Below are positions 858-8,732 of a stretch of 32,000 nt of DNA, piece by piece. Below the pieces are notes generated by a model, which made no database searches, was not told the origin of the DNA, and saw only the letters and a program-made list of their open reading frames with translations. Location of the stretch: assembly GCF_003324675.1 (NCBI RefSeq), contig NZ_CP030918.1:1770001-1802000 (forward strand). The letters run 5' to 3'. The position numbers and the translations under genes were made by a program. Position 1 is the first letter of the stretch. Each line of letters starts with the position of its first letter. The stretch comes from Paracoccus suum (lineage in GTDB: Bacteria > Pseudomonadota > Alphaproteobacteria > Rhodobacterales > Rhodobacteraceae).

Positions 858-1115
858 TCAAGCAGTGCGCTCGGACCGCCAGTGGCCATCTTGGCCCTTG
901 GCGAGCCGCCAGTTCTGCACGGTTACGAGCGTGCCGCGGGCGGTGCGATAGTCGGGAACGGTGAGACGGATGGAATCGCCTTCGGCGCGCCATTCCGCGA
1001 TGACGGTGACGCCGTCGCCGAACTCGACCAGGCAGTCGGGCGCGGCCTTCCCATCATCGTCGACGGTGACGCGGCCTTTCCGAAAGGCATGGCTATGAGG
1101 AAACAGGAAACGCAT
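858..1115 (-). CDS. Hypothetical small protein (85 aa)
   Basis: ATG start preceded by AAGGAGAAAG RBS. GC-rich third positions. Same strand as the neighbouring island genes. No family recognised. Confidence 0.55.
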   Translation of the reverse strand: MRFLFPHSHAFRKGRVTVDDDGKAAPDCLVEFGDGVTVIAEWRAEGDSIRLTVPDYRTARGTLVTVQNWRLAKGQDGHWRSERTA

Positions 1116-1188
1116 TCGGGCGCTTTCTCCTTCTCGGCGTCTTACGCCTTGAAGATCGCGCTGGACGATCGCCTGACAAGGGGGCGTT

Positions 1189-1256
1189 GCGGGGTCTCCC
1201 CGCAGAAGGGGGTGTGCCGGCGACCTTGGCGCCGGCCAGGGGGAAGGCTTTCCCCC
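1189..1256. other. Cluster of three GC-rich stem-loops in the intergenic region
   Basis: gcgggg-tct-ccccgc (1189-1203), gccggcg-accttgg-cgccggc (1216-1236), gggggaa-ggct-ttccccc (1239-1256). Located 16 nt downstream of the stop of the 1272-1649 gene. No clear U-tract on the minus strand. Confidence 0.35.
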
Positions 1257-1271
1257 TTCACCTGAATTTGC

Positions 1272-1649
1272 TCACCTGGTCCCGGCCTGCTTCCGACGAC
1301 GGGCCACGGTACGAACGCCAGCACTATCGCCCATGGTCATGTCACCCAGGCTATGGAGATGAAGCGCCGGATGCGATGGCAGCGTCACCGTAAGTTCGAG
1401 CTTGCCGCCGACGGCCTCGACATAGCTGCGCAGCGTCGAGAGATACATATCCGCCTGCTTTTCGATCTTGGACACCGACGGCTGCTTGATGTTGAGGGCC
1501 GAGGCGATGTCTTCCTGCGCTTTGCCGGCGATCTGGCGCAGCTCGCGCAGACCCTCGACCTCCTGCCGCAGTTCCTGATAGCGCGCTTCGATAGCTGCCT
1601 GTTCGTCAGCAGGAAGCCCGGCAATGATTTCGTTCAGGCTCCGAGCCAT
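1272..1649 (-). CDS. XRE-family HTH protein, HigA-like antitoxin of the kind partnered with Gp49/DUF891 (RelE/ParE-superfamily) toxins; orphan copy 1
   Basis: 125 aa. The stretch LRELRQIAGKAQEDIASALNIKQPSVSKIEKQADMYLSTLRSYVEAVGGKLELTV is the typical HTH plus C-terminal beta segment of this antitoxin class. It sits directly downstream of a toxin remnant. Confidence 0.85.
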   Translation of the reverse strand: MARSLNEIIAGLPADEQAAIEARYQELRQEVEGLRELRQIAGKAQEDIASALNIKQPSVSKIEKQADMYLSTLRSYVEAVGGKLELTVTLPSHPALHLHSLGDMTMGDSAGVRTVARRRKQAGTR

Positions 1650-1650
1650 C

Positions 1651-1788
1651 TCAACGTCCCTTCTTTGCGGATTTCAGGCTTTCCACATGCTCGGAAAACC
1701 GTAGATCCGCTTTTGCGATGAGCTGCCGGTAGAACCGCTGCTGACTCTCGCCGGATGCATCGCCCGCTACGCGCCCGATAGTGCTATT
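1651..1788 (-). pseudogene. C-terminal remnant of a Gp49/HigB-like (RelE/ParE superfamily) toxin gene
   Basis: The open frame gives NSTIGRVAGDASGESQQRFYRQLIAKADLRFSEHVESLKSAKKGR*. This resembles the conserved toxin C-terminus (..GGDK.GD.R[WF]Y...IP.AD.l...Hl..l...G). There is no in-frame start. An upstream ATG (1799-1797) is out of frame and terminates after 10 codons. The stop lies 1 nt before the antitoxin ATG. Confidence 0.6.
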
Positions 1789-1794
1789 TCAACG

Positions 1795-1823
1795 TTCATA
1801 GCCTCAAAGCTATACCGGATCAA
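1795..1823 (-). promoter_or_regulatory. Candidate sigma70-type promoter P1 with a palindromic operator in the spacer
   Basis: The minus strand reads TTGATC (1823-1818), a 17-nt spacer, then TATGAA (1800-1795). The spacer contains ATAGC-N6-GCTAT. It is homologous to the element at 7010-7038. Confidence 0.5.
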
Positions 1824-1903
1824 CAAAACCACACGCGACCAAGCGAGTGATCATCCACCGTGGAGTACCGCCCCGATCGCTAGACACTTTATCGAGCGGA
1901 CTT

Positions 1904-2791
1904 TCAGATCGTGAAAGCGGGTCTCGGTCCCGGCCAATCGGGATCGGTTTCCATCTGGCTTGCGAGATCGGCTGCTGCGACCCGCCTCAGGCTAGACGCC
2001 GCAATGAATTGGACACCGAGCGCCAACCTGACAACCGAAAGCCGCTTCAAGCCTGCGGGCTTATATCGGCTCGCAACATAGGGCGGCAGGCTCGCCACCA
2101 CGGCTTGAACTCGCGCATCGTCGCGGTGCGGCCGTGCGGTAGCCATACGCTGGGCGAGCACAGCCAAGTTGTGACCGTCCTTGCCTTTTCGGAAAGAGTC
2201 GGGATCGACACCATCCCAAACCAATGCTGCCTTTATGGACAGCTCGGCGGCCATGCAGATTGGCTGTACTACCGAGTCGTGGCTGAACGAGGTGGGCAAT
2301 GTGTTCGCCACGTCTTCGAGATTCGACCCCGCCATCCGCCAGAGCGTCACCGCGCCAGCATTGCGTTGCTCAACCTCGTTGAGACCCATTGTGAAATCGT
2401 GAATGTCCGCGCCGGCAAAGGCGACGCCAGCGGCGATCGACCGATCTTGGCGGCACCAATTCCACCATTCCTCCGCATTCTCGAAGCCCGTTATCTGCCA
2501 AGGCTGGAGAGAATTCTGACCGAACAGGACGGGGAAAACGGCCTTTCGCACCTGATCGACCGAAGCTACCAATCCGATTCCGGCACCGGGCCAACTCGTC
2601 TCGACTTCCGGCATCATGGCCGCATAAGCATCCATGATGCGTTTGACCTCGGGATTGCCGCCAACCCCCATCACGAAACTGGAGCCGAGCAACTCCATCG
2701 CGGCCCGGAACGGCCGCTGGTGAATGTGAACACCATTCTCGGCATATTTCAGATCCAATCGGCGCAGATCGTCCGCCGTCCACCTACTCAT
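1904..2791 (-). CDS. Uncharacterised protein (295 aa) with a HEPN-like helix; last gene of the operon
   Basis: ATG with AGGAGA RBS 6 nt upstream and a 9-nt gap to the preceding gene. The segment AELSIKAALVWDGVDPDSFRKGKDGHNLAVLAQRM (R201-x5-H207) resembles the HEPN R-x4-6-H / K.HDL..L helix. Confidence 0.75.
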   Translation of the reverse strand: MSRWTADDLRRLDLKYAENGVHIHQRPFRAAMELLGSSFVMGVGGNPEVKRIMDAYAAMMPEVETSWPGAGIGLVASVDQVRKAVFPVLFGQNSLQPWQITGFENAEEWWNWCRQDRSIAAGVAFAGADIHDFTMGLNEVEQRNAGAVTLWRMAGSNLEDVANTLPTSFSHDSVVQPICMAAELSIKAALVWDGVDPDSFRKGKDGHNLAVLAQRMATARPHRDDARVQAVVASLPPYVASRYKPAGLKRLSVVRLALGVQFIAASSLRRVAAADLASQMETDPDWPGPRPAFTI

Positions 2792-2800
2792 TTGGGTCTC

Positions 2801-3631
2801 CTACCGACCGTTGGCTAAGCGCCGGAGGAAGGTTCGCGCGGTAACAAGCACGACGTGGAGACGGAAGGTGCTGTGATCCTCGTCCGAAAGACCGGGGTGC
2901 GATCCTTCGGTGTGCAGCATCTTGAAAAGGCCATTGACGTAGTTCTTCCCGTCTCCGGTCCATTCATTGCGGCTCGTCGACAAGAAGCCGATTTCCGCCA
3001 GCAATGCCCGGCGATTTTCGGAGCTGGGCCTTTTCGCTGCATCTTCCGGGCGGACGTTGCGGGCAATGTCGTCGAACAGGCTTTCAAGGAATGTGCGAAG
3101 TTGTCCGTTGCAGGCAGCCCAATCGCCGCGGGTGTGCGCCTCGATCGCTTGATCGAGATGACCGAGTGGGGTCATGAAAGCGAAGGATTTTAGGAGCCGA
3201 TGCACTTCATCGTCGGTTTCGGGAAGCTGGATTTCTCCCGGCAGCGCGGCTCGAATTGATGCGTTCCGACCATTGTCGTCCCAGACCAACACAAAGGCAT
3301 CGCGGGCAAGCCCACGGGCAAACGCCGTCTGCAATGGATGAATCGCGTCGGGTTGTGCCAGCAGCGCCGCTTGGCGCACGACGGCTTCGCCGAGCGTCAT
3401 GCGACCATCGAGCGTGTCGAGGATTGCATCGACGCGCTGGACGACAATGCGTCCAAGCAGATCGCATTTTTTCGCGACGCTGATGCCGGTATCTGACGAA
3501 ATCTCATCCTCAAGCGCGAGACGAAGCACAACCTGGTTGAAGCGCGCCTGGCTGTGCTGTTCGAGCAGTTCGACGGCAGCAATCAGGGTCGGACGGGTGA
3601 AGGGAGCTGATTGCATTGGCGGGCTACTCAA
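2801..3631 (-). CDS. Uncharacterised protein (276 aa from TTG at 3631, or 271 aa from ATG at 3616); fifth gene of the operon
   Basis: Coherent protein-like translation. The start either overlaps the ATPase stop by 8 nt (TTG) or lies 7 nt after it (ATG). The C-terminal helical region is LRTFLESLFDDIAR...LFKMLHTEGSHPGLSDEDHSTFRLHVVLVTARTFLRRL. No family recognised. Confidence 0.75.
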   Translation of the reverse strand: MSSPPMQSAPFTRPTLIAAVELLEQHSQARFNQVVLRLALEDEISSDTGISVAKKCDLLGRIVVQRVDAILDTLDGRMTLGEAVVRQAALLAQPDAIHPLQTAFARGLARDAFVLVWDDNGRNASIRAALPGEIQLPETDDEVHRLLKSFAFMTPLGHLDQAIEAHTRGDWAACNGQLRTFLESLFDDIARNVRPEDAAKRPSSENRRALLAEIGFLSTSRNEWTGDGKNYVNGLFKMLHTEGSHPGLSDEDHSTFRLHVVLVTARTFLRRLANGR

Positions 3632-5387
3632 ACCGCAGGCCGAATAGCCCCCCAGTGTCGGTCGCGTCGGTCAGCTTCGTGTCCATGACATGGGAGCGGA
3701 TATTGAACCCGGCCTTGAACCCTTCACGCGGCAGCGCGTCAGAGTTCATTGTGACAATGTACTGAAACCCGGCAGCCTCAGCCCGTTCGGCGCCGAGTTG
3801 CAACGCCTTAGCAACCTGCCTTTCGTCCACCCCATCGAATAGATGGCTGTCATGGACCAGAAAGCCGGGACCGCGCCCATTCTTAAGGCTAATCTCGGTC
3901 AACATGAGATCGAAGCAGAATATCTGCATATTGGTAATGCCCTTGCTTCGTTGTCCATCGATATGGACCTCGAATTGGGGGCCGCTTCCGGTCTCGCCAA
4001 TCGTTAGGCTGCCAGCCTTTTCGTAAAGGGACTCCGAGAGCGACTCGAAAATGAGGATAGCCTCGCGGATGATGTCGGTCCGCTCGTGAATATCGTCGCG
4101 TAGCGCCTTGGTCAGGTTGGCCCGTTCGATGTCGAGTTCAGCCTTGGTGCTTTCGATCCGTTCAGCGGTATCGAGCCGCTGGCGAAGTCCCTCGACCTCA
4201 GCCTCGGCCCGGCCGGCTTCTTCGCGCAGCGATGTATAATGTTCGAGTGCTCCACCGGAGCGCAGCACACCCATTATCTGACGACGCCGACGGTCGCGCT
4301 CGGCTGTGCGCTGATCGCGTTCAGCGATGCGGGCCTCTGCCGAGGTGATCTCGGCGGTCAAGTGCGCGCGCCGGTTCTCGATGATAGTTCGGTGGAAGCG
4401 CTCCACCTCGTCGAAACGCCGCCGCACCATGTCGGGGAGGACGACGCCGGCCTCCGCATAGAGTTTCGTAACGTCGCCCAAGTCGGGCGCATCCTCATCA
4501 ACCAGCGACGCGCGAAGCTGTTGCAGGAGATCGCCGTCGATCACATTCTCGACGTTCATCCCGTCAATTTCGCGCGTAATTTCGTTCGCCTCACGCTCCA
4601 GAGCTTTGTATTCAGGCACTACCTCAAACGTTTCAAGCTGCTGGCGAAGCCGCACGGCACGAGCCTCCGCGACAGTCAGCTTCGTTCTGAGATCGGCCGC
4701 TTTGCCGAAGAAGCGGCCAAGATCGCCGCTGCGGGCTGCCTTACGCAGTTCCTGAGCGACCTTCTCCTGCGCGCGCAGTTCCTGAAAGCGGCCGGGAATA
4801 CTCCAGTCGAGGCCAAGCAGATAGCAGATCGAGACCTGCTGATCCCACGGCTGCTGCATTCCCGAATGTTGCATTGGCTGCTGAAAGCCGCCGCTGTTCT
4901 GACGACGGACGAAATAGGAGAAGAGCGAGCGGAACGACGGCTGGAAACGCTCGGCTTCGTCGCCCGCCGAAATGGGCAGGTCGAACCAAAGCTGACCGAG
5001 GTTGGCTTTCCAGTTCTCATTCGATAACTCGAACAGGCCGGCGCGCGTGTCGAACTGCGGCGGGATCGGCCAGTTCTCGACGGCGCCATTGACAAAGACC
5101 CGGCTCGGCTTGGCGCCGCTACGGGCCGCCGAGATGGTTTCTTGCGCAATGTCGACGGAGACGTCGAAGGTCCATGCCGTCAGCGCATCAGAACGGAATA
5201 TGCTATCCTTGCGCGCGTCGGCGCCAAACAAGAAATGGACCAGCTCGATGAAACTGGTCTTGCCCGCACCATTCCTCGACTGGCGATCGTTGGCGCCTTC
5301 GCTCTTGTCGGCCAGCAGGATGTTCAAACCCGGCTTGAAGGTCAGTGTCTTGAAAGACGCGAGGTCGCTGCCGAAACGGCGGATCAT
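3624..5387 (-). CDS. ABC-3C-type ABC/SMC-like ATPase with a coiled-coil insert (DUF2326-like C-terminus), 587 aa
   Basis: Walker A NGAGKTS (aa 39-45). Long Arg/Glu/Leu-rich coiled-coil at roughly aa 200-470. Signature-like GQRSKGITNMQIFCFDLML. Walker B/D-loop GFLVHDSHLFDGVD. ATGA start/stop overlap with the upstream 81-aa gene. Confidence 0.85.
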   Translation of the reverse strand: MIRRFGSDLASFKTLTFKPGLNILLADKSEGANDRQSRNGAGKTSFIELVHFLFGADARKDSIFRSDALTAWTFDVSVDIAQETISAARSGAKPSRVFVNGAVENWPIPPQFDTRAGLFELSNENWKANLGQLWFDLPISAGDEAERFQPSFRSLFSYFVRRQNSGGFQQPMQHSGMQQPWDQQVSICYLLGLDWSIPGRFQELRAQEKVAQELRKAARSGDLGRFFGKAADLRTKLTVAEARAVRLRQQLETFEVVPEYKALEREANEITREIDGMNVENVIDGDLLQQLRASLVDEDAPDLGDVTKLYAEAGVVLPDMVRRRFDEVERFHRTIIENRRAHLTAEITSAEARIAERDQRTAERDRRRRQIMGVLRSGGALEHYTSLREEAGRAEAEVEGLRQRLDTAERIESTKAELDIERANLTKALRDDIHERTDIIREAILIFESLSESLYEKAGSLTIGETGSGPQFEVHIDGQRSKGITNMQIFCFDLMLTEISLKNGRGPGFLVHDSHLFDGVDERQVAKALQLGAERAEAAGFQYIVTMNSDALPREGFKAGFNIRSHVMDTKLTDATDTGGLFGLRFE

Positions 5388-5629
5388 GGTTGAACCCTCC
5401 GCACCAGGCCGCGATCGAAGTCAACGGCACCAATCGTGAAGAGCAGGTCGAGCGAGAGAATGAACCACTGATAGTCAATGGGAGCATTGGGCGCATGAAG
5501 CGAACGGCGTCCGCGCATCTCGTCCCACAGCCGCGACATCGTCATCGGTCGCTTTAGAATATCGAGAACCTCTGCGCCAACGCCAATGAGCGCGCGATCG
5601 GGACGGACATGCTTTGTCGGGAGGATCAT
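5384..5629 (-). CDS. ABC-3C middle component-like small protein (81 aa)
   Basis: Its size, position between the effector and the ATPase, and pattern (PDRALIGVGAEVLDILKRPMTMSRLWDEM....IDYQWFILSLDLLFTIGAVDF) are typical of the small MC proteins. ATGA overlaps at both ends. Confidence 0.8.
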   Translation of the reverse strand: MILPTKHVRPDRALIGVGAEVLDILKRPMTMSRLWDEMRGRRSLHAPNAPIDYQWFILSLDLLFTIGAVDFDRGLVRRVQP

Positions 5630-6540
5630 GATGCCTCCACAGAAATGATGGTCGGATCTTCGAAGATGTCGCAGCTATCGAAAAAATAAGCGAGGACTGC
5701 CAGCGCCGCTCCCTGACGCTTCGGCTCGCCATTGAAGCCGGCATAATCCTGAAGGTGCTTGAAAATCGTGTCGGCCGGAAGATCGAGAGCTTTCAGCTCG
5801 GCATATCGCAGTCGGAAAGCCTCGGCGATGCGCTCGCCGAGATCGGGACGGGGAATTTTCTGGAAGAATGTATCAACGAGCGCCGACTTCCGTCGACCAA
5901 TGCGCAGAAACAGGCCCGATTCCTCGGATAGTGCGTTTTTTTCCAGCTTTTCCGGCGACGGCGGCGTCAGTGGCGGATCGCTTGGATTGGGCTCCTGCCG
6001 CTGGAGCGCCTCGATGATCGGCACCAGATCAGACATGACGAGGCGATCCACGATCGCTATCGAAGCCGCAGGACCGAAGAGGGCCTGAAGCGCGGCCAGA
6101 TCGAGCATCATGGTAAGATCCAGCAACTCCGGCTCGGACCAAGTGGTAATGAGCAGCGGCGCATGAGCCTGACGAAGGCCGTCAATATGCTGAACCGCGT
6201 TCGGCGGGAGTCCGCGCCCGTCGTTATGGACGAAGACCCACTCCAGCATGTTGCCGTTCCAATGGGCACGGGCACCGTGAAAGTCTTCATCGACTTTGGC
6301 GATGAGGTCGGCTTCCTTCATGGCATCGGGGGCGTAGCACTGGAAAACCGAGCCGGAGCTGATCCGGCGGCCATCGCATTTCAGGTCCCCATAGGGACCG
6401 TAGGGGCGGACCTCCTCGAAATCAGCACCGAGGGCATGGCCTGCGAGAAGCACGAACCAATCCTGAAAGGCGGTGCCTTTTTTGGTGTGAAACGCCAAAC
6501 GGAAACGATCAACGTAGATGGACCGCTGCAACTCATCCAT
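5626..6540 (-). CDS. ABC-3C effector-like protein (304 aa): Mrr/PD-(D/E)xK-like N-terminal domain plus helical C-terminal domain
   Basis: Start taken at ATG 6540 (MDELQRS...), overlapping the XRE stop as ATGGATGA. The N-terminus FQDWFVLLAGHALGADFEEVRPYGPYGDLKCDGRRISSGSVFQCY resembles the Mrr-cat motif FE..v..ll...G....GDgGiDG....vQcK. The C-terminal half is helical, as expected for the shared C-terminal domains of ABC-3C effectors. Confidence 0.8.
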   Translation of the reverse strand: MDELQRSIYVDRFRLAFHTKKGTAFQDWFVLLAGHALGADFEEVRPYGPYGDLKCDGRRISSGSVFQCYAPDAMKEADLIAKVDEDFHGARAHWNGNMLEWVFVHNDGRGLPPNAVQHIDGLRQAHAPLLITTWSEPELLDLTMMLDLAALQALFGPAASIAIVDRLVMSDLVPIIEALQRQEPNPSDPPLTPPSPEKLEKNALSEESGLFLRIGRRKSALVDTFFQKIPRPDLGERIAEAFRLRYAELKALDLPADTIFKHLQDYAGFNGEPKRQGAALAVLAYFFDSCDIFEDPTIISVEAS

Positions 6541-6913
6541 GGCGCCGCCTTGGCGTCGGATCGTCGCTCTTCTTCCGCACCGATGCGGCTCTGACAGGTA
6601 CAAGATCGCCAAGATGATGAATCCGCAGCACCGGCCGCTTGGGTAGCTTGACAGTCAGCTCCAATTCGCCGCCGACGGCTTCCACATAATTGCGCAAAGT
6701 CGAGAGGTGCATGTCACTCTGCTTCTCGATCTTGGAGACGGACGGCTGCGTAATATTCAAAGCGGATGCGATATCCGCCTGCGCTTTGCCTGCGATCTGA
6801 CGAAGTTCGCGCAAACCCTCGACCTCTTGTGTCATATCCTGCTGACGCGCATCTATGACGGCCTGCTGGTCGTGAGGAAGGAGAGCATCGATATGGTCGG
6901 TGCTTCTACCCAT
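6533..6913 (-). CDS. XRE-family HTH protein, HigA-like; paralogue of 1272-1649 and first gene of the ABC-3C-type operon
   Basis: Start taken at ATG 6913 (MGRSTDHIDALLPHDQQAVI...), giving 126 aa. Roughly three quarters of the positions are identical by eye to the 1272-1649 product over QEVEGLRELRQIAGKAQ.DIASALNI.QPSVSKIEKQ.DM.LSTLR.YVEAVGG.LELTV. Confidence 0.85.
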   Translation of the reverse strand: MGRSTDHIDALLPHDQQAVIDARQQDMTQEVEGLRELRQIAGKAQADIASALNITQPSVSKIEKQSDMHLSTLRNYVEAVGGELELTVKLPKRPVLRIHHLGDLVPVRAASVRKKSDDPTPRRRHG

Positions 6914-7034
6914 CTTGCTGTCCTTCCTTGATACGTGTTGGCATGGTGACGTTGCTGCCAAACGACAGATCAGCCAATGCCGTGATTCCTTCGACAATAG
7001 ATCTGCGTTTGTATAGCTTTAAGGCTATGTCCGG
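6906..7034 (-). pseudogene. Possible second toxin remnant (weak)
   Basis: The frame without a start codon gives PDIALKLYKRRSIVEGITALADLSFGSNVTMPTRIKEGQQDG*. It aligns loosely with the toxin C-terminus at 1651-1788 ([FL]Y...I..ADL.F...V......K.G). Its TAG overlaps the XRE ATG (GATGGGTAG). Confidence 0.3.
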
Positions 7035-7038
7035 TCAA
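7010..7038 (-). promoter_or_regulatory. Candidate sigma70-type promoter P2 with a palindromic operator, upstream of the XRE/ABC-3C operon
   Basis: The minus strand reads TTGACC (7038-7033), a 17-nt spacer, then TATACA (7015-7010). The spacer contains ATAGC-N6-GCTAT. An ungapped alignment with P1 matches 21 of 29 positions by my hand count. Confidence 0.5.
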
Positions 7039-7327
7039 CGGAAAGGGCGTGTGGCCCGTCCGGCGAGGCTACCGTAGATCGGCGACAGCTCGCGGCCCAG
7101 GCGTCGAGATCATCGACGGCATAGCGGACCCACTTGCCGAACTTGTGGTAGGCAGGTCCGCCGCCGAGCGAGCGGTAGCATTCGAGCGTGTGGGCCGACA
7201 GCGCGAGGTATCGCGCTGCGGCTTCGGTATCGACGAAGCGGATCGGGCCGGCGTCGTCGACAAATTGGGCGCGGCGCAGGATGTCGGGTGTCGGCCAGCG
7301 GCGTTGGGCCTTGGCTTCCTCACGCAT
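7025..7327 (-). CDS. Excisionase/AlpA-type (MerR-like) HTH DNA-binding protein, 100 aa
   Basis: Start taken at ATG 7327 (MREEAKAQ...), overlapping the integrase stop as ATGCGTGA. The segment FVDTEAAARYLALSAHTLECYRSLGGGPAYHKFGKWVRYAVDDLDAWAA matches the excisionase-family HTH pattern. Confidence 0.7.
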   Translation of the reverse strand: MREEAKAQRRWPTPDILRRAQFVDDAGPIRFVDTEAAARYLALSAHTLECYRSLGGGPAYHKFGKWVRYAVDDLDAWAASCRRSTVASPDGPHALSVDRT

Positions 7328-8732
7328 GATCGGCCTCCTGCGCTTCAACTCGCTTGCTGCCGGGCGGCAGGGTCCGGTTCTCACCGCTGCGGTGGCGGAA
7401 GGGCCGGTAGTTTCCGACGCGCGTGCGCGAGGCGTATTTGCCGTCCTCAAACCCGAGCGGCTTGCCGTCCGAGCCGGGGATCGCGGGTGCAGACTCCACG
7501 ACCGGCGCGACGGGCGGCGGCTCCATAGCGGGAGGCGGCGGCGCGGGCGGCTGGTGCTCCACGCCGATCACGTTCATCCGGCGCCGTGTCACGGCTTCCG
7601 CCGCCGCCCGGACAGGCTCGTCCTCGGTGTGGACGTAACGCATGAACATCGTCACCGTCTTGTGGGCGGTGAGCGCCATGCCGACCTTCACCGGCACGCC
7701 GGAGTTGGCGATATCGGTGGCGGAGCGATGCCGGATGCCATGGGTGCCGACATGAGGAAGGCCCGACCGCTCCAGAATGCGCTTCCAGCCTTGGTAGTAG
7801 GTGTAGGCCGACATCGGCTTTTCCGGGTCAAAGATCGAAGGGCAGACATAAGGCGAATCCACCATCAGCGGCGCGTTCTCGAAAAGGCGCTGGGCCTCGG
7901 CGCTCATCGGCTTCGACATCCCGCCCGTCTTGCTGTCCGGCCAGACGACGCGGCGGTTGTCGAAATCGACCCAGGCCCATTCGAGTTCGGTGATCTCCGA
8001 CATGCGTGCGGCAAACTCGAACTGAAGCCGGATGGCCAGAACAATGAACGGGTGTTCCAGTCCTTCCGCCTCGGCACGGTCAAGATATTCGAAGAGTTTG
8101 CGCATTTCCCCATCGGTGATGAGGCGGGTCTTGCCGCGTTCGGGGTATTTCGGGACATGGCGGCAGGGATTGGAGCCATCAGGCCGCAATCCCCAGACCT
8201 CGGCCACGTTGAACATTTTCCGGCACATCGCCAGAACGCGGTTCGCGCTGGTGGGGGACTTCGCCATCTTCTTCATGAGATCGGCAATGTCGGCGCGCGT
8301 AACATCCGGCACCTTCAATTGCCCGAGCTTCGGAATGAGGTGGCGCTTGCCCCGTTCCCGATTGGACTGGACGGTCGAGGGCTTATTGCGACCCTCAGAA
8401 TAATCGGTGATGAAACGATCGAAGAGTTCTTTGACCGTCGGCGCCTGACGGGTCGCCGTCCGCTCGGCGCTGGGATCGCCGCCACGCCGGACCTCGGCGA
8501 GCCAGTCCTGCGCGACCCCACGCGCCTGTTCGACGGTGATCTCGCCGTAGCGGCCAATGGCGGGCTTTCGGCGCTGACCGCTGTTCGTGACATAGGCGAT
8601 CATGAAAGTTTTCCGACCAGCGGGCGTGACCTTCACGAGAAAGCCGGGTATCGTCGTATCGCGGAGTTCGTAGTCGCGTTCTTGCGGGGTTGCGGCGTCA
8701 ACAGCCGTCTTGGTGAGCTTGATTTTGGCCAT
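7320..8732 (-). CDS. Tyrosine-type site-specific integrase (P4-like, DUF4102-type N-terminus), 470 aa
   Basis: N-terminus MAKIKLTKTAVDAATPQERDYELRDTTIPGFLVKVTPAGRKTF. Catalytic region HGIRHRSAT...TAHKTVTMFMRYVH. AAGGAGG RBS 7 nt upstream of the ATG. Confidence 0.95.
   Translation of the reverse strand: MAKIKLTKTAVDAATPQERDYELRDTTIPGFLVKVTPAGRKTFMIAYVTNSGQRRKPAIGRYGEITVEQARGVAQDWLAEVRRGGDPSAERTATRQAPTVKELFDRFITDYSEGRNKPSTVQSNRERGKRHLIPKLGQLKVPDVTRADIADLMKKMAKSPTSANRVLAMCRKMFNVAEVWGLRPDGSNPCRHVPKYPERGKTRLITDGEMRKLFEYLDRAEAEGLEHPFIVLAIRLQFEFAARMSEITELEWAWVDFDNRRVVWPDSKTGGMSKPMSAEAQRLFENAPLMVDSPYVCPSIFDPEKPMSAYTYYQGWKRILERSGLPHVGTHGIRHRSATDIANSGVPVKVGMALTAHKTVTMFMRYVHTEDEPVRAAAEAVTRRRMNVIGVEHQPPAPPPPAMEPPPVAPVVESAPAIPGSDGKPLGFEDGKYASRTRVGNYRPFRHRSGENRTLPPGSKRVEAQEADHA

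Follow-up and report, generated by a model that had tools for sequence, protein, structure and literature searches.

This analysis concerns two adjacent genes, here called X and Y, in a 32,000-nucleotide (nt) stretch of DNA from Paracoccus suum (contig NZ_CP030918.1, positions 1,770,001 to 1,802,000), which is referred to as the window and whose own numbering is used below. Both lie directly 3′ of the ATPase gene of an ABC-3C operon, X encoding a protein of 271 amino acids (aa; 2801–3616) and Y one of 295 aa (1904–2791); like the other genes of the block, they are on the minus strand. The operon is headed by an HTH_37 (XRE-type) regulator (6533–6997; Pfam HTH_37, E = 7e-8), whose 3′ end overlaps the start of a gene for the effector-like ABC-3C component, a protein with a CTD10 C-terminal domain (5626–6612; Pfam CTD10, E = 1.2e-14; PADLOC PDC-M68A). 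Then come the middle component MC6 (5384–5629; Pfam MC6, E = 4.5e-24) and an LmuB-like ABC/SMC-like ATPase with DUF2326 and CTD10 (3624–5387; DUF2326, E = 2e-43; PADLOC PDC-M68B, E = 9e-166), so that Pfam finds CTD10 in both the ATPase and the effector-like protein. The ATPase has 100% identity to a protein recorded for Paracoccus suum. Judged by these profile matches, the three genes upstream of X are a genuine ABC-3C (Lamassu-family) core, and the block is an HTH_37-headed ABC-3C (Lamassu-family) operon carried by an integrase-bearing island. A second HTH_37 gene, a paralogue of the first (1272–1649; Pfam HTH_37, E = 3.7e-8), begins 254 nt past Y on the same strand and marks both the head of the following unit and the limit of the X–Y cassette. 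It will be argued, tentatively, that this cassette is an accessory to the ABC-3C operon and not part of its core.

The two genes were first noticed in the sequence alone as open reading frames (ORFs) of 271/276 and 295 aa behind the ATPase gene, and their lengths and their spacing (7 nt or an overlap, then 9 nt) are exactly as the original prediction gave them. X has two possible starts, a TTG that would give 276 aa (2801–3631) and overlaps the ATPase stop codon, and an ATG that gives 271 aa and lies 7 nt past that stop. The ATG is the real start, because nearly all of the 120 matches listed are 271–273 aa long and independent gene calls give 271 aa. The stop codon of X is separated by 9 nt from the ATG of Y, and the sequence AGGAGA, a ribosome-binding site, ends 6 nt before that start. 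Given the gaps of 7 and 9 nt, the co-expression with the ATPase gene that had been thought likely is judged plausible. A 323-aa plus-strand ORF (1847–2818) runs antisense over all of Y; long spurious ORFs such as this are typical of G+C-rich DNA, and nothing indicates that it is a gene.

Domain content of Y and X

Y and X are real, conserved and widely spread, and both are absent from curated family libraries; the earlier view that neither is a described family holds, there being no Pfam match above the cut-off and no match in NCBIfam or PADLOC. Y has 325 relatives at 90% clustering, spread over the Alpha-, Beta- and Gammaproteobacteria. Its match to the Pfam HEPN family (PF05168) covers residues 150–246 and falls below the 22-bit cut-off (E = 0.077, 13.6 bits). 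The same family is matched by 26 of 40 relatives of Y at E ≤ 1, with a best value of 7.2e-5, while no other family recurs, and NCBI/UniRef gives several relatives the name ‘HEPN domain-containing protein’. An AlphaFold2 (AF2) model of Y (pLDDT 83, pTM 0.84) was compared as a whole chain with known structures using Foldseek, in which 1wol was matched with a probability of 0.85, a TM-score of 0.67 and a root-mean-square deviation of 3.9 Å over 131 columns. The classical HEPN structures 1wol, 2q00, 2hsb and 4nqf are the sole compact matches, in keeping with the HEPN fold that had been proposed for the 295-aa protein, yet the Foldseek E-values are all at least 1.

The HEPN signature motifs are E-x3-[KR] and R-x4-6-H, the latter with variants in the HEPN-T clade (PMC3710099). 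Conservation in Y was assessed in 134 homologues, down to 38% identity. The stretch AELSIKAALVWDGVDPDSFRKGKDGHNLAVLAQRM begins at residue 182. Codons E183–K187 (2231–2245) form the second signature motif, E-x3-K, with the glutamate present in 133 and the lysine in all 134 homologues. The original prediction had pointed to R201 and H207 (2171–2191; codons 2191–2189 and 2173–2171, respectively) as an R-x5-H helix of HEPN type. H207 is invariant in the 134 homologues, as are K187, H222, D225, R242, Y243 and R269; R201 is found in just 37, with a gap in 87. Position 202, on the other hand, is basic in 130 of the 134 (lysine in 103, arginine in 27), so that the conserved part of the helix is K/R202-x4-H207. 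The HEPN-like domain has thus stood and the particular arginine has not. Lysine in place of arginine at this position is non-canonical for R-x4-6-H, and the bare pattern is not above chance, since Y contains two instances and composition-preserving shuffles average 1.3, with 39% reaching two. Taken together, the profile matches, the motifs and the model support the presence of an HEPN-T-like domain at approximately residues 117–290 of Y.

The N-terminal domain of Y, some 115–140 aa, is without a recognisable relative. Residues 57–99 (2495–2623) weakly resemble the YTHDC2 YTH domain over 42 residues (E = 0.06–0.8); the region is predicted to be mostly helix with one hairpin, and a YTH identity was rejected as probably a chance match. 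Y does not match the Ymh family (PF09509) in Pfam.

X belongs to a large unannotated family, of 901 clusters at 90% identity and 675 at 50% identity in an exhaustive HMMER scan (E ≤ 1e-3), for which there is no Pfam, NCBIfam or PADLOC model and no Pfam match in 30 close or 65 diverse members. Its AF2 model (pLDDT 84) has two domains, which accounts for a pTM as low as 0.55. The N-terminal part contains helix-helix-helix-hairpin units and looks winged-helix-like by its order of helices and strands; the C-terminal domain is helical. For the latter, Foldseek returned 2hsb (probability 0.91, TM-score 0.54), 2q00_B (0.87, 0.56) and 1o3u (0.82, 0.54), all with E > 0.7; across the matches to 2hsb, 1o3u and 2q00 the TM-scores range from 0.52 to 0.56 and the probabilities from 0.77 to 0.91. 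Further matches are to 4nqf, to 7bxo_F (0.41, 0.46, again with E > 0.7), a chain of a toxin–antitoxin (TA) complex and in our reading its HEPN toxin, HepT, and to Csm6', and this weak set is largely common with that of Y. The C-terminal module of X, which had earlier defied placement, can now be called weakly HEPN-like, so both genes, and not one, appear to belong to the HEPN superfamily. Confidence in an HEPN-like C-terminal domain in X, based on the model, is moderate.

The most conserved loop of the X family corresponds in the window to codons 233–242, M-L-H-T-E-G-S-H-P-G (2891–2920, minus strand). The family consensus is R-L-H-P-x-G-S-H-P-G, that is R-x6-H, within a wider G-x-x-K-R-L-H-P-x-G-S-H-P-G-L-S-D. 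Among 104 representatives, position 233 is arginine in 88 and methionine in 8, and H240 is present in 99; H153, N170, R174, E218 and S244 are also near-invariant. X of the window has M233, and its protein contains no R-x4-6-H anywhere. The change is correlated with a second one, in that most of the family has R233 with D248 and the clade of the window has M/L233 with H248 (2918–2920 and 2873–2875), which suggests that residues 233 and 248 contact each other and that the site has been remodelled.

Profile methods were negative for X throughout. No HEPN-type profile was matched in Pfam by the 30 close and 65 diverse members, the PDB profile searches gave nothing, and Pfam shows no match of X to PF09509. 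Comparisons with hhalign, at whole length and by domain, of X with Y, of X with the Ymh-type partners described below and of Y with those partners were not significant; the sole hint, an alignment of the N-terminal part of X with the start of its Ymh partner (E = 0.005, probability 7%), can be treated only as a lead. Among viral structures, Foldseek found no usable match for X. Among PDB sequence and profile matches of X and Y, 3otv (a Mycobacterium ‘probable conserved transmembrane protein’), the YTHDC2 YTH domain, ADRM1 and ArgR were rejected as chance-level.

Gene neighbourhoods and the surrounding island

In 19 of 76 loci X is immediately preceded, on the same strand and at 7–47 nt, by an ABC-3C ATPase gene, and the ATPases concerned fall into three divergent clades. 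At 21 ABC-3C-linked X loci the gene downstream of X is Ymh-type in nine, Y in five and an OLD nuclease gene in two, so that an HEPN gene follows X in 14 of them. These observations favour a view in which X and Y are true fourth and fifth ABC-3C subunits, which the ATPase complex would activate as a second effector/sensor pair. Set against it is the fact that X and Y have no CTD, MC or DUF2326 match in Pfam (E ≤ 0.1) and no PADLOC match. The plasmid database PLSDB holds 45 plasmids with MC6-type systems and 32 with X, and no accession is common to the 40 ABC-3C plasmids listed and the 32 with X; the ATPase gene is the last of the operon in all four plasmid ABC-3C loci inspected. Moreover, X sequences that are 84–85% identical to that of the window stand behind ATPases only 34–35% identical to its ATPase (and X sequences 58–60% identical behind ATPases 48–51% identical), which indicates cassette exchange rather than co-evolution. 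X also follows AbiE and VapBC operons equally. A conserved linkage of the two genes to the ABC-3C ATPase across genomes was not found, with the figures given for X and with ABC-3C near Y in just three of 59 genomes.

The close relatives of the operon point the same way. Eight ATPases with 87–98% identity to that of the window were chosen for their long contigs and not for their neighbours, and in all eight the order HTH_37–effector–MC6–ATPase is constant. What lies 3′ of the ATPase gene differs: X, Y and an HTH_37 gene in Paradevosia; X and a Ymh-type gene in Sinorhizobium medicae; a deletion fusing X (residues 1–102) to the C-terminus of the downstream HTH_37 protein behind a 98%-identical Shinella-type ATPase; a TIR-TPR protein in the X–Y slot in P. 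aeruginosa; and nothing in the four others. X is thus intact in two of the eight, a deletion remnant in one and missing from five. The fusion is a 147-aa ORF (6273–6716 in both L150 and L151) from which the C-terminus of X, the whole of Y and the N-terminus of the HTH_37 protein have been cleanly deleted. This variant has the ATPase P0392, which NCBI names for Shinella and which is on record in 61 index blocks of the collection; the reading covered 24 contigs. The P. aeruginosa protein, of 842 aa, is encoded 36 nt past the ATPase gene of a 90%-identical ABC-3C operon (6301–8829 of L156). The 3′ end of this ABC-3C clade seems to serve as a docking site for extra effectors in general. Of the five-component ABC-3C variant that had been proposed, the part that survives is X as a recurrent add-on, and X and Y are not fixed components; the cassette is optional for ABC-3C, and it is the five-component description that is only partly supported, in this weak sense. 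We consider it quite improbable that X and Y are true subunits.

Elsewhere X comes directly after VapC, the two genes overlapping by 1 nt, in 11 loci (among L076–L094), and after AbiEi–AbiEii at a gap of 1 nt; other genes upstream of it encode a DUF6602 protein, an SMC-like AAA_23 ATPase, a ScpB-like protein and an integrase. X thus recurs tightly appended to the ends of defence or toxin operons, namely ABC-3C, AbiEi/AbiEii and VapBC. Its downstream partner is swappable. Partners were counted by tblastn with the identified partner families at 77 loci with enough sequence, of which 34 were classed as ‘other/none’ and may hide more types: the gene 3′ of X is a Ymh-type HEPN gene in 13, a 352-aa family in eight, Y in six and a 493-aa family in three, and OLD nuclease, PIN_8, peptidase U49, RlaP, a GGACT fusion and a 279-aa protein with a GIY-YIG-like motif are also found. 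The most frequent partner matches PF09509 (E = 1.5e-41) with a canonical F-R-N-P-T-A-H motif. The gap between X and its partner is –4 to +14 nt for Ymh, the 352-aa family and Y. A tblastn search with X and Y of 50,697 phage records found neither, which argues against an origin in phage counter-defence.

The other neighbours of Y, examined in a sample of 59 species genomes, vary and belong to mobile elements or defence islands. They include a 355-aa family and, upstream of Y, TatD, an IrrE peptidase, a reverse transcriptase, AbiEii, a HerA-like ATPase, a VapC PIN toxin and a 187–515-aa family whose sequence, read by eye, recalls VirB1-type lytic transglycosylases. Besides the three genomes with X upstream of Y, a fourth has an unrelated ABC-3C system 1.7 kb away. 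In an Ochrobactrum genome (9576–10004 of L024), Y is immediately preceded, with a 4-nt overlap, by a member of the VapC PIN-toxin family (about 143 aa, MRYLLDTNII...); since this same family precedes X in the 11 loci mentioned above, X and Y can fill equivalent operon-tail positions. In two Y loci (8964–10004 of L012 and 9273–9992 of L039) a tightly coupled upstream gene without a Pfam match has an R-N-x-x-x-H-H string (IRNATHH and IRNAFAHH). From these strings, the two genes may be further undescribed HEPN-like partners, and tandem HEPN-like pairs may be a recurring theme.

As to the island itself, a tyrosine integrase gene (7320–8732; Pfam Phage_integrase and Arm-DNA-bind_3) and an HTH_17 excisionase-like gene (Pfam HTH_17) form a minus-strand block at 7025–8732 that marks the island carrying the whole operon. 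No tRNA gene accompanies the integrase, ARAGORN finding none across the 32-kb window, and a repeat search gave no convincing att-like direct repeats around the island. The G+C content is 0.58–0.61 over 1000–7000 against 0.60–0.72 in the flanks. The two HTH_37 genes share a 300-nt direct repeat with 70% identity (1342–1641 and 6606–6905), and their proteins are 65–68% identical; they bracket the five-gene ABC-3C–X–Y block, and each seems to head one cargo unit of the island. In relatives, ArdC-like genes come after the second HTH_37 gene. The island of Devosia equisanguinis (11700–16100 of L001, compared with 850–1270 of the window) has about 4.5 kb extra between the second HTH_37 gene and an 85-aa ORF; this DNA, absent from the window, contains chromate transporter-like, cation-efflux-like and transposase-like genes, assigned by eye from their translations. 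Finally, the true start of the effector-like gene is likely to be M25 (at about 6540), giving about 304 aa, and gene calls in relatives are 302–312 aa; started there, the gene would overlap the HTH_37 stop codon by 8 nt. The N-terminal half of the protein (residues 25–190) has no match in Pfam, NCBIfam or PADLOC. Its stretch PYGDLKCDG...FQCY resembles a PD-(D/E)xK-type nuclease motif and might reflect one.

Proposed function and rival explanations

The explanation that we favour, with a confidence that does not quite reach even, is that X and Y are a separable accessory two-gene cassette docked 3′ of the ABC-3C operon, not core parts of it, with X as a regulatory or gating partner. We infer each catalytic and regulatory step of this scheme. 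The cassette would lack a separate promoter and be transcribed by read-through from the repressor-controlled upstream operon, so that any derepression of the operon would also switch on the cassette. Y would be the effector, a dimeric HEPN endoribonuclease that stops translation in an abortive-infection-like response, and its N-terminal domain would keep it silent until a trigger arrives. X, carrying M233, would serve as an HEPN-like partner of a non-canonical or regulatory kind, gating or targeting the effector encoded after it, whichever that may be, and is itself probably no nuclease. A regulatory rather than enzymatic role for X in this clade is suggested because the motif arginine has been lost.

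Several observations weigh against this scheme. X is absent upstream of Y in 56 of the 59 genomes, being present only in Devosia, Brucella sp. and Halomonas, so that Y does not need X. X in its turn may need no partner, since in some loci (L064 and L071) only convergent genes come after it. The partners of X are structurally unrelated (HEPN, OLD, PIN_8, peptidase U49, GIY-YIG-like motif), and it is hard to see how a single protein could gate all of them directly; a search for an N-terminal adaptor common to them revealed none. The assignment of X to HEPN relies on Foldseek matches with E > 0.2 and is unaccompanied by Pfam, PDB-sequence or hhalign support. Promoter evidence is also not usable, in that a scan for promoters and terminators gave counts equal to those of shuffled sequences and is uninformative in G+C-rich DNA.

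Some of these points are what would be expected under the chief alternative, in which X and Y would be unrelated single-gene systems of defence or abortive infection, each self-sufficient and each made up of a sensor domain and an HEPN domain. They would be stacked in one island and share a transcript but not interact. The upstream neighbours of Y in the 56 genomes without X are unrelated, X has many different neighbours on either side, and monogenic HEPN defence proteins with a weak sequence signal are well documented. What this explanation does not readily accommodate is that the close clade of X almost always has a coupled 3′ gene, at –4 to +14 nt, and that 19 of the 43 identified partners of X are HEPN proteins, either Ymh or Y. 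In addition, X–Y travels as a pair outside ABC-3C, in Halomonas, and was deleted as a block in the Shinella-type variant; and X of this clade, lacking the motif arginine, is not what would be expected of an autonomous RNase. Independent stacked genes are somewhat unlikely; they are the main rival to the docked cassette.

Composite HEPN active sites that require dimers are established for the superfamily. The catalytic motif and the toxin roles of HEPN proteins are documented (PMC3710099). It may be asked whether X–Y is a TA-like addiction module, in which Y would be the HEPN toxin and X an antitoxin that forms a heterodimer with it through a dead HEPN-like domain, the N-terminal part of X repressing transcription. 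The small gap and the antitoxin-then-toxin order fit, as does the missing arginine of X, and the joint loss of the C-terminus of X and of Y in L150 and L151 would be tolerable for a TA pair. The Halomonas locus, however, which is without ABC-3C, has an X that looks frameshifted beside an intact Y, and Y occurs without X in most genomes. The non-HEPN partners of X could not be neutralised by HEPN heterodimerisation, and the MNT-type partner of known HEPN TA systems (a minimal nucleotidyltransferase) is missing. We give this explanation little credence.

A more far-reaching proposal builds on the docked cassette. X would be a new, widespread family and the constant subunit of an undescribed two-gene defence module, a promoterless plug-in behind repressor-controlled ABC-3C, AbiE and VapBC operons that fires as a second layer upon derepression. 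Its swappable second gene would encode a Ymh-HEPN, a Y-type HEPN, the 352-aa family, the 279-aa GIY-YIG-like protein, OLD, PIN_8 or a Lit-like protease, and the changes R233M and D248H would mark a clade switched from enzyme to regulator. As a joint claim this is unlikely to be right in full.

Relation to known systems and significance

Compared with ABC-3C/Lamassu (PADLOC PDC-M68), the three upstream genes are textbook components (DUF2326 + CTD10 ATPase, MC6 and CTD10 effector-like protein), and X recurs behind such ATPases; X and Y differ in having no CTD or MC domain and in being absent from most loci, and the canonical system is complete without them. Y resembles the classical HEPN-T proteins (PF05168; 1wol, ST0689; 2hsb, AF0298; 1o3u, TM0613; 2q00) in its C-terminal half, with a TM-score of up to 0.67, E-x3-K and a basic residue-x4-H. 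Those proteins, in contrast, stand alone at about 120 aa and are usually paired with a minimal nucleotidyltransferase, whereas Y has an extra N-terminal domain and no MNT partner; according to Pfam, neither X nor any of the genes around it in the window has the nucleotidyltransferase domain of HEPN–MNT type II TA systems. The predominance of lysine over arginine in the motif (103 to 27) is a further difference of the Y family, and loss or replacement of the motif arginine is known within the HEPN-T clade, for example in Parep1/8 (PDB 2q00; PMC3710099).

Ymh-type HEPN proteins (PF09509), which are embedded in restriction–modification (R–M) and defence operons, fill the slot of Y behind X in sister loci with a gap of 5–8 nt, but X and Y do not match PF09509 and hhalign found no significant similarity to the Ymh partners. 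X and Y share with single-gene HEPN defence proteins (AbiJ, AbiV, AbiB, HEC-08 and Ishtar) a sensor-like domain joined to an HEPN domain that is weak by sequence and visible by fold, and a location in defence islands or mobile elements. There is no detectable sequence relationship with them, however: X is negative in Pfam, PADLOC, NCBIfam and the PDB, Y matches the general HEPN profile only, and a role in defence is predicted for both. Finally, the ‘embedded’ accessory defence genes described in a preprint (Payne et al. 2024) are likewise variable extra genes within, or at the end of, the operon of a known system, and the slot described here holds X and Y, X and Ymh, or TIR-TPR. The preprint centres on Hma, type I R–M and BREX as hosts, and the parts of it considered here make no mention of an arrangement behind ABC-3C in which a constant gene of the X type has a swappable partner.

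The usual view of ABC-3C/Lamassu systems is that they consist of three genes; this locus and its relatives indicate that in one clade the 3′ end is a slot at which additional, interchangeable effectors dock. Should X and Y be merely stacked solo genes, annotation libraries would gain two new HEPN-type candidate defence families, and the locus would warn against taking neighbours for components of a system. If, on the other hand, X does link a swappable nuclease to TA or defence operons upstream of it, it would provide a concrete, testable case of layered immunity by operon tail-gating, a function for a large unannotated family and one for a new HEPN-T subfamily.

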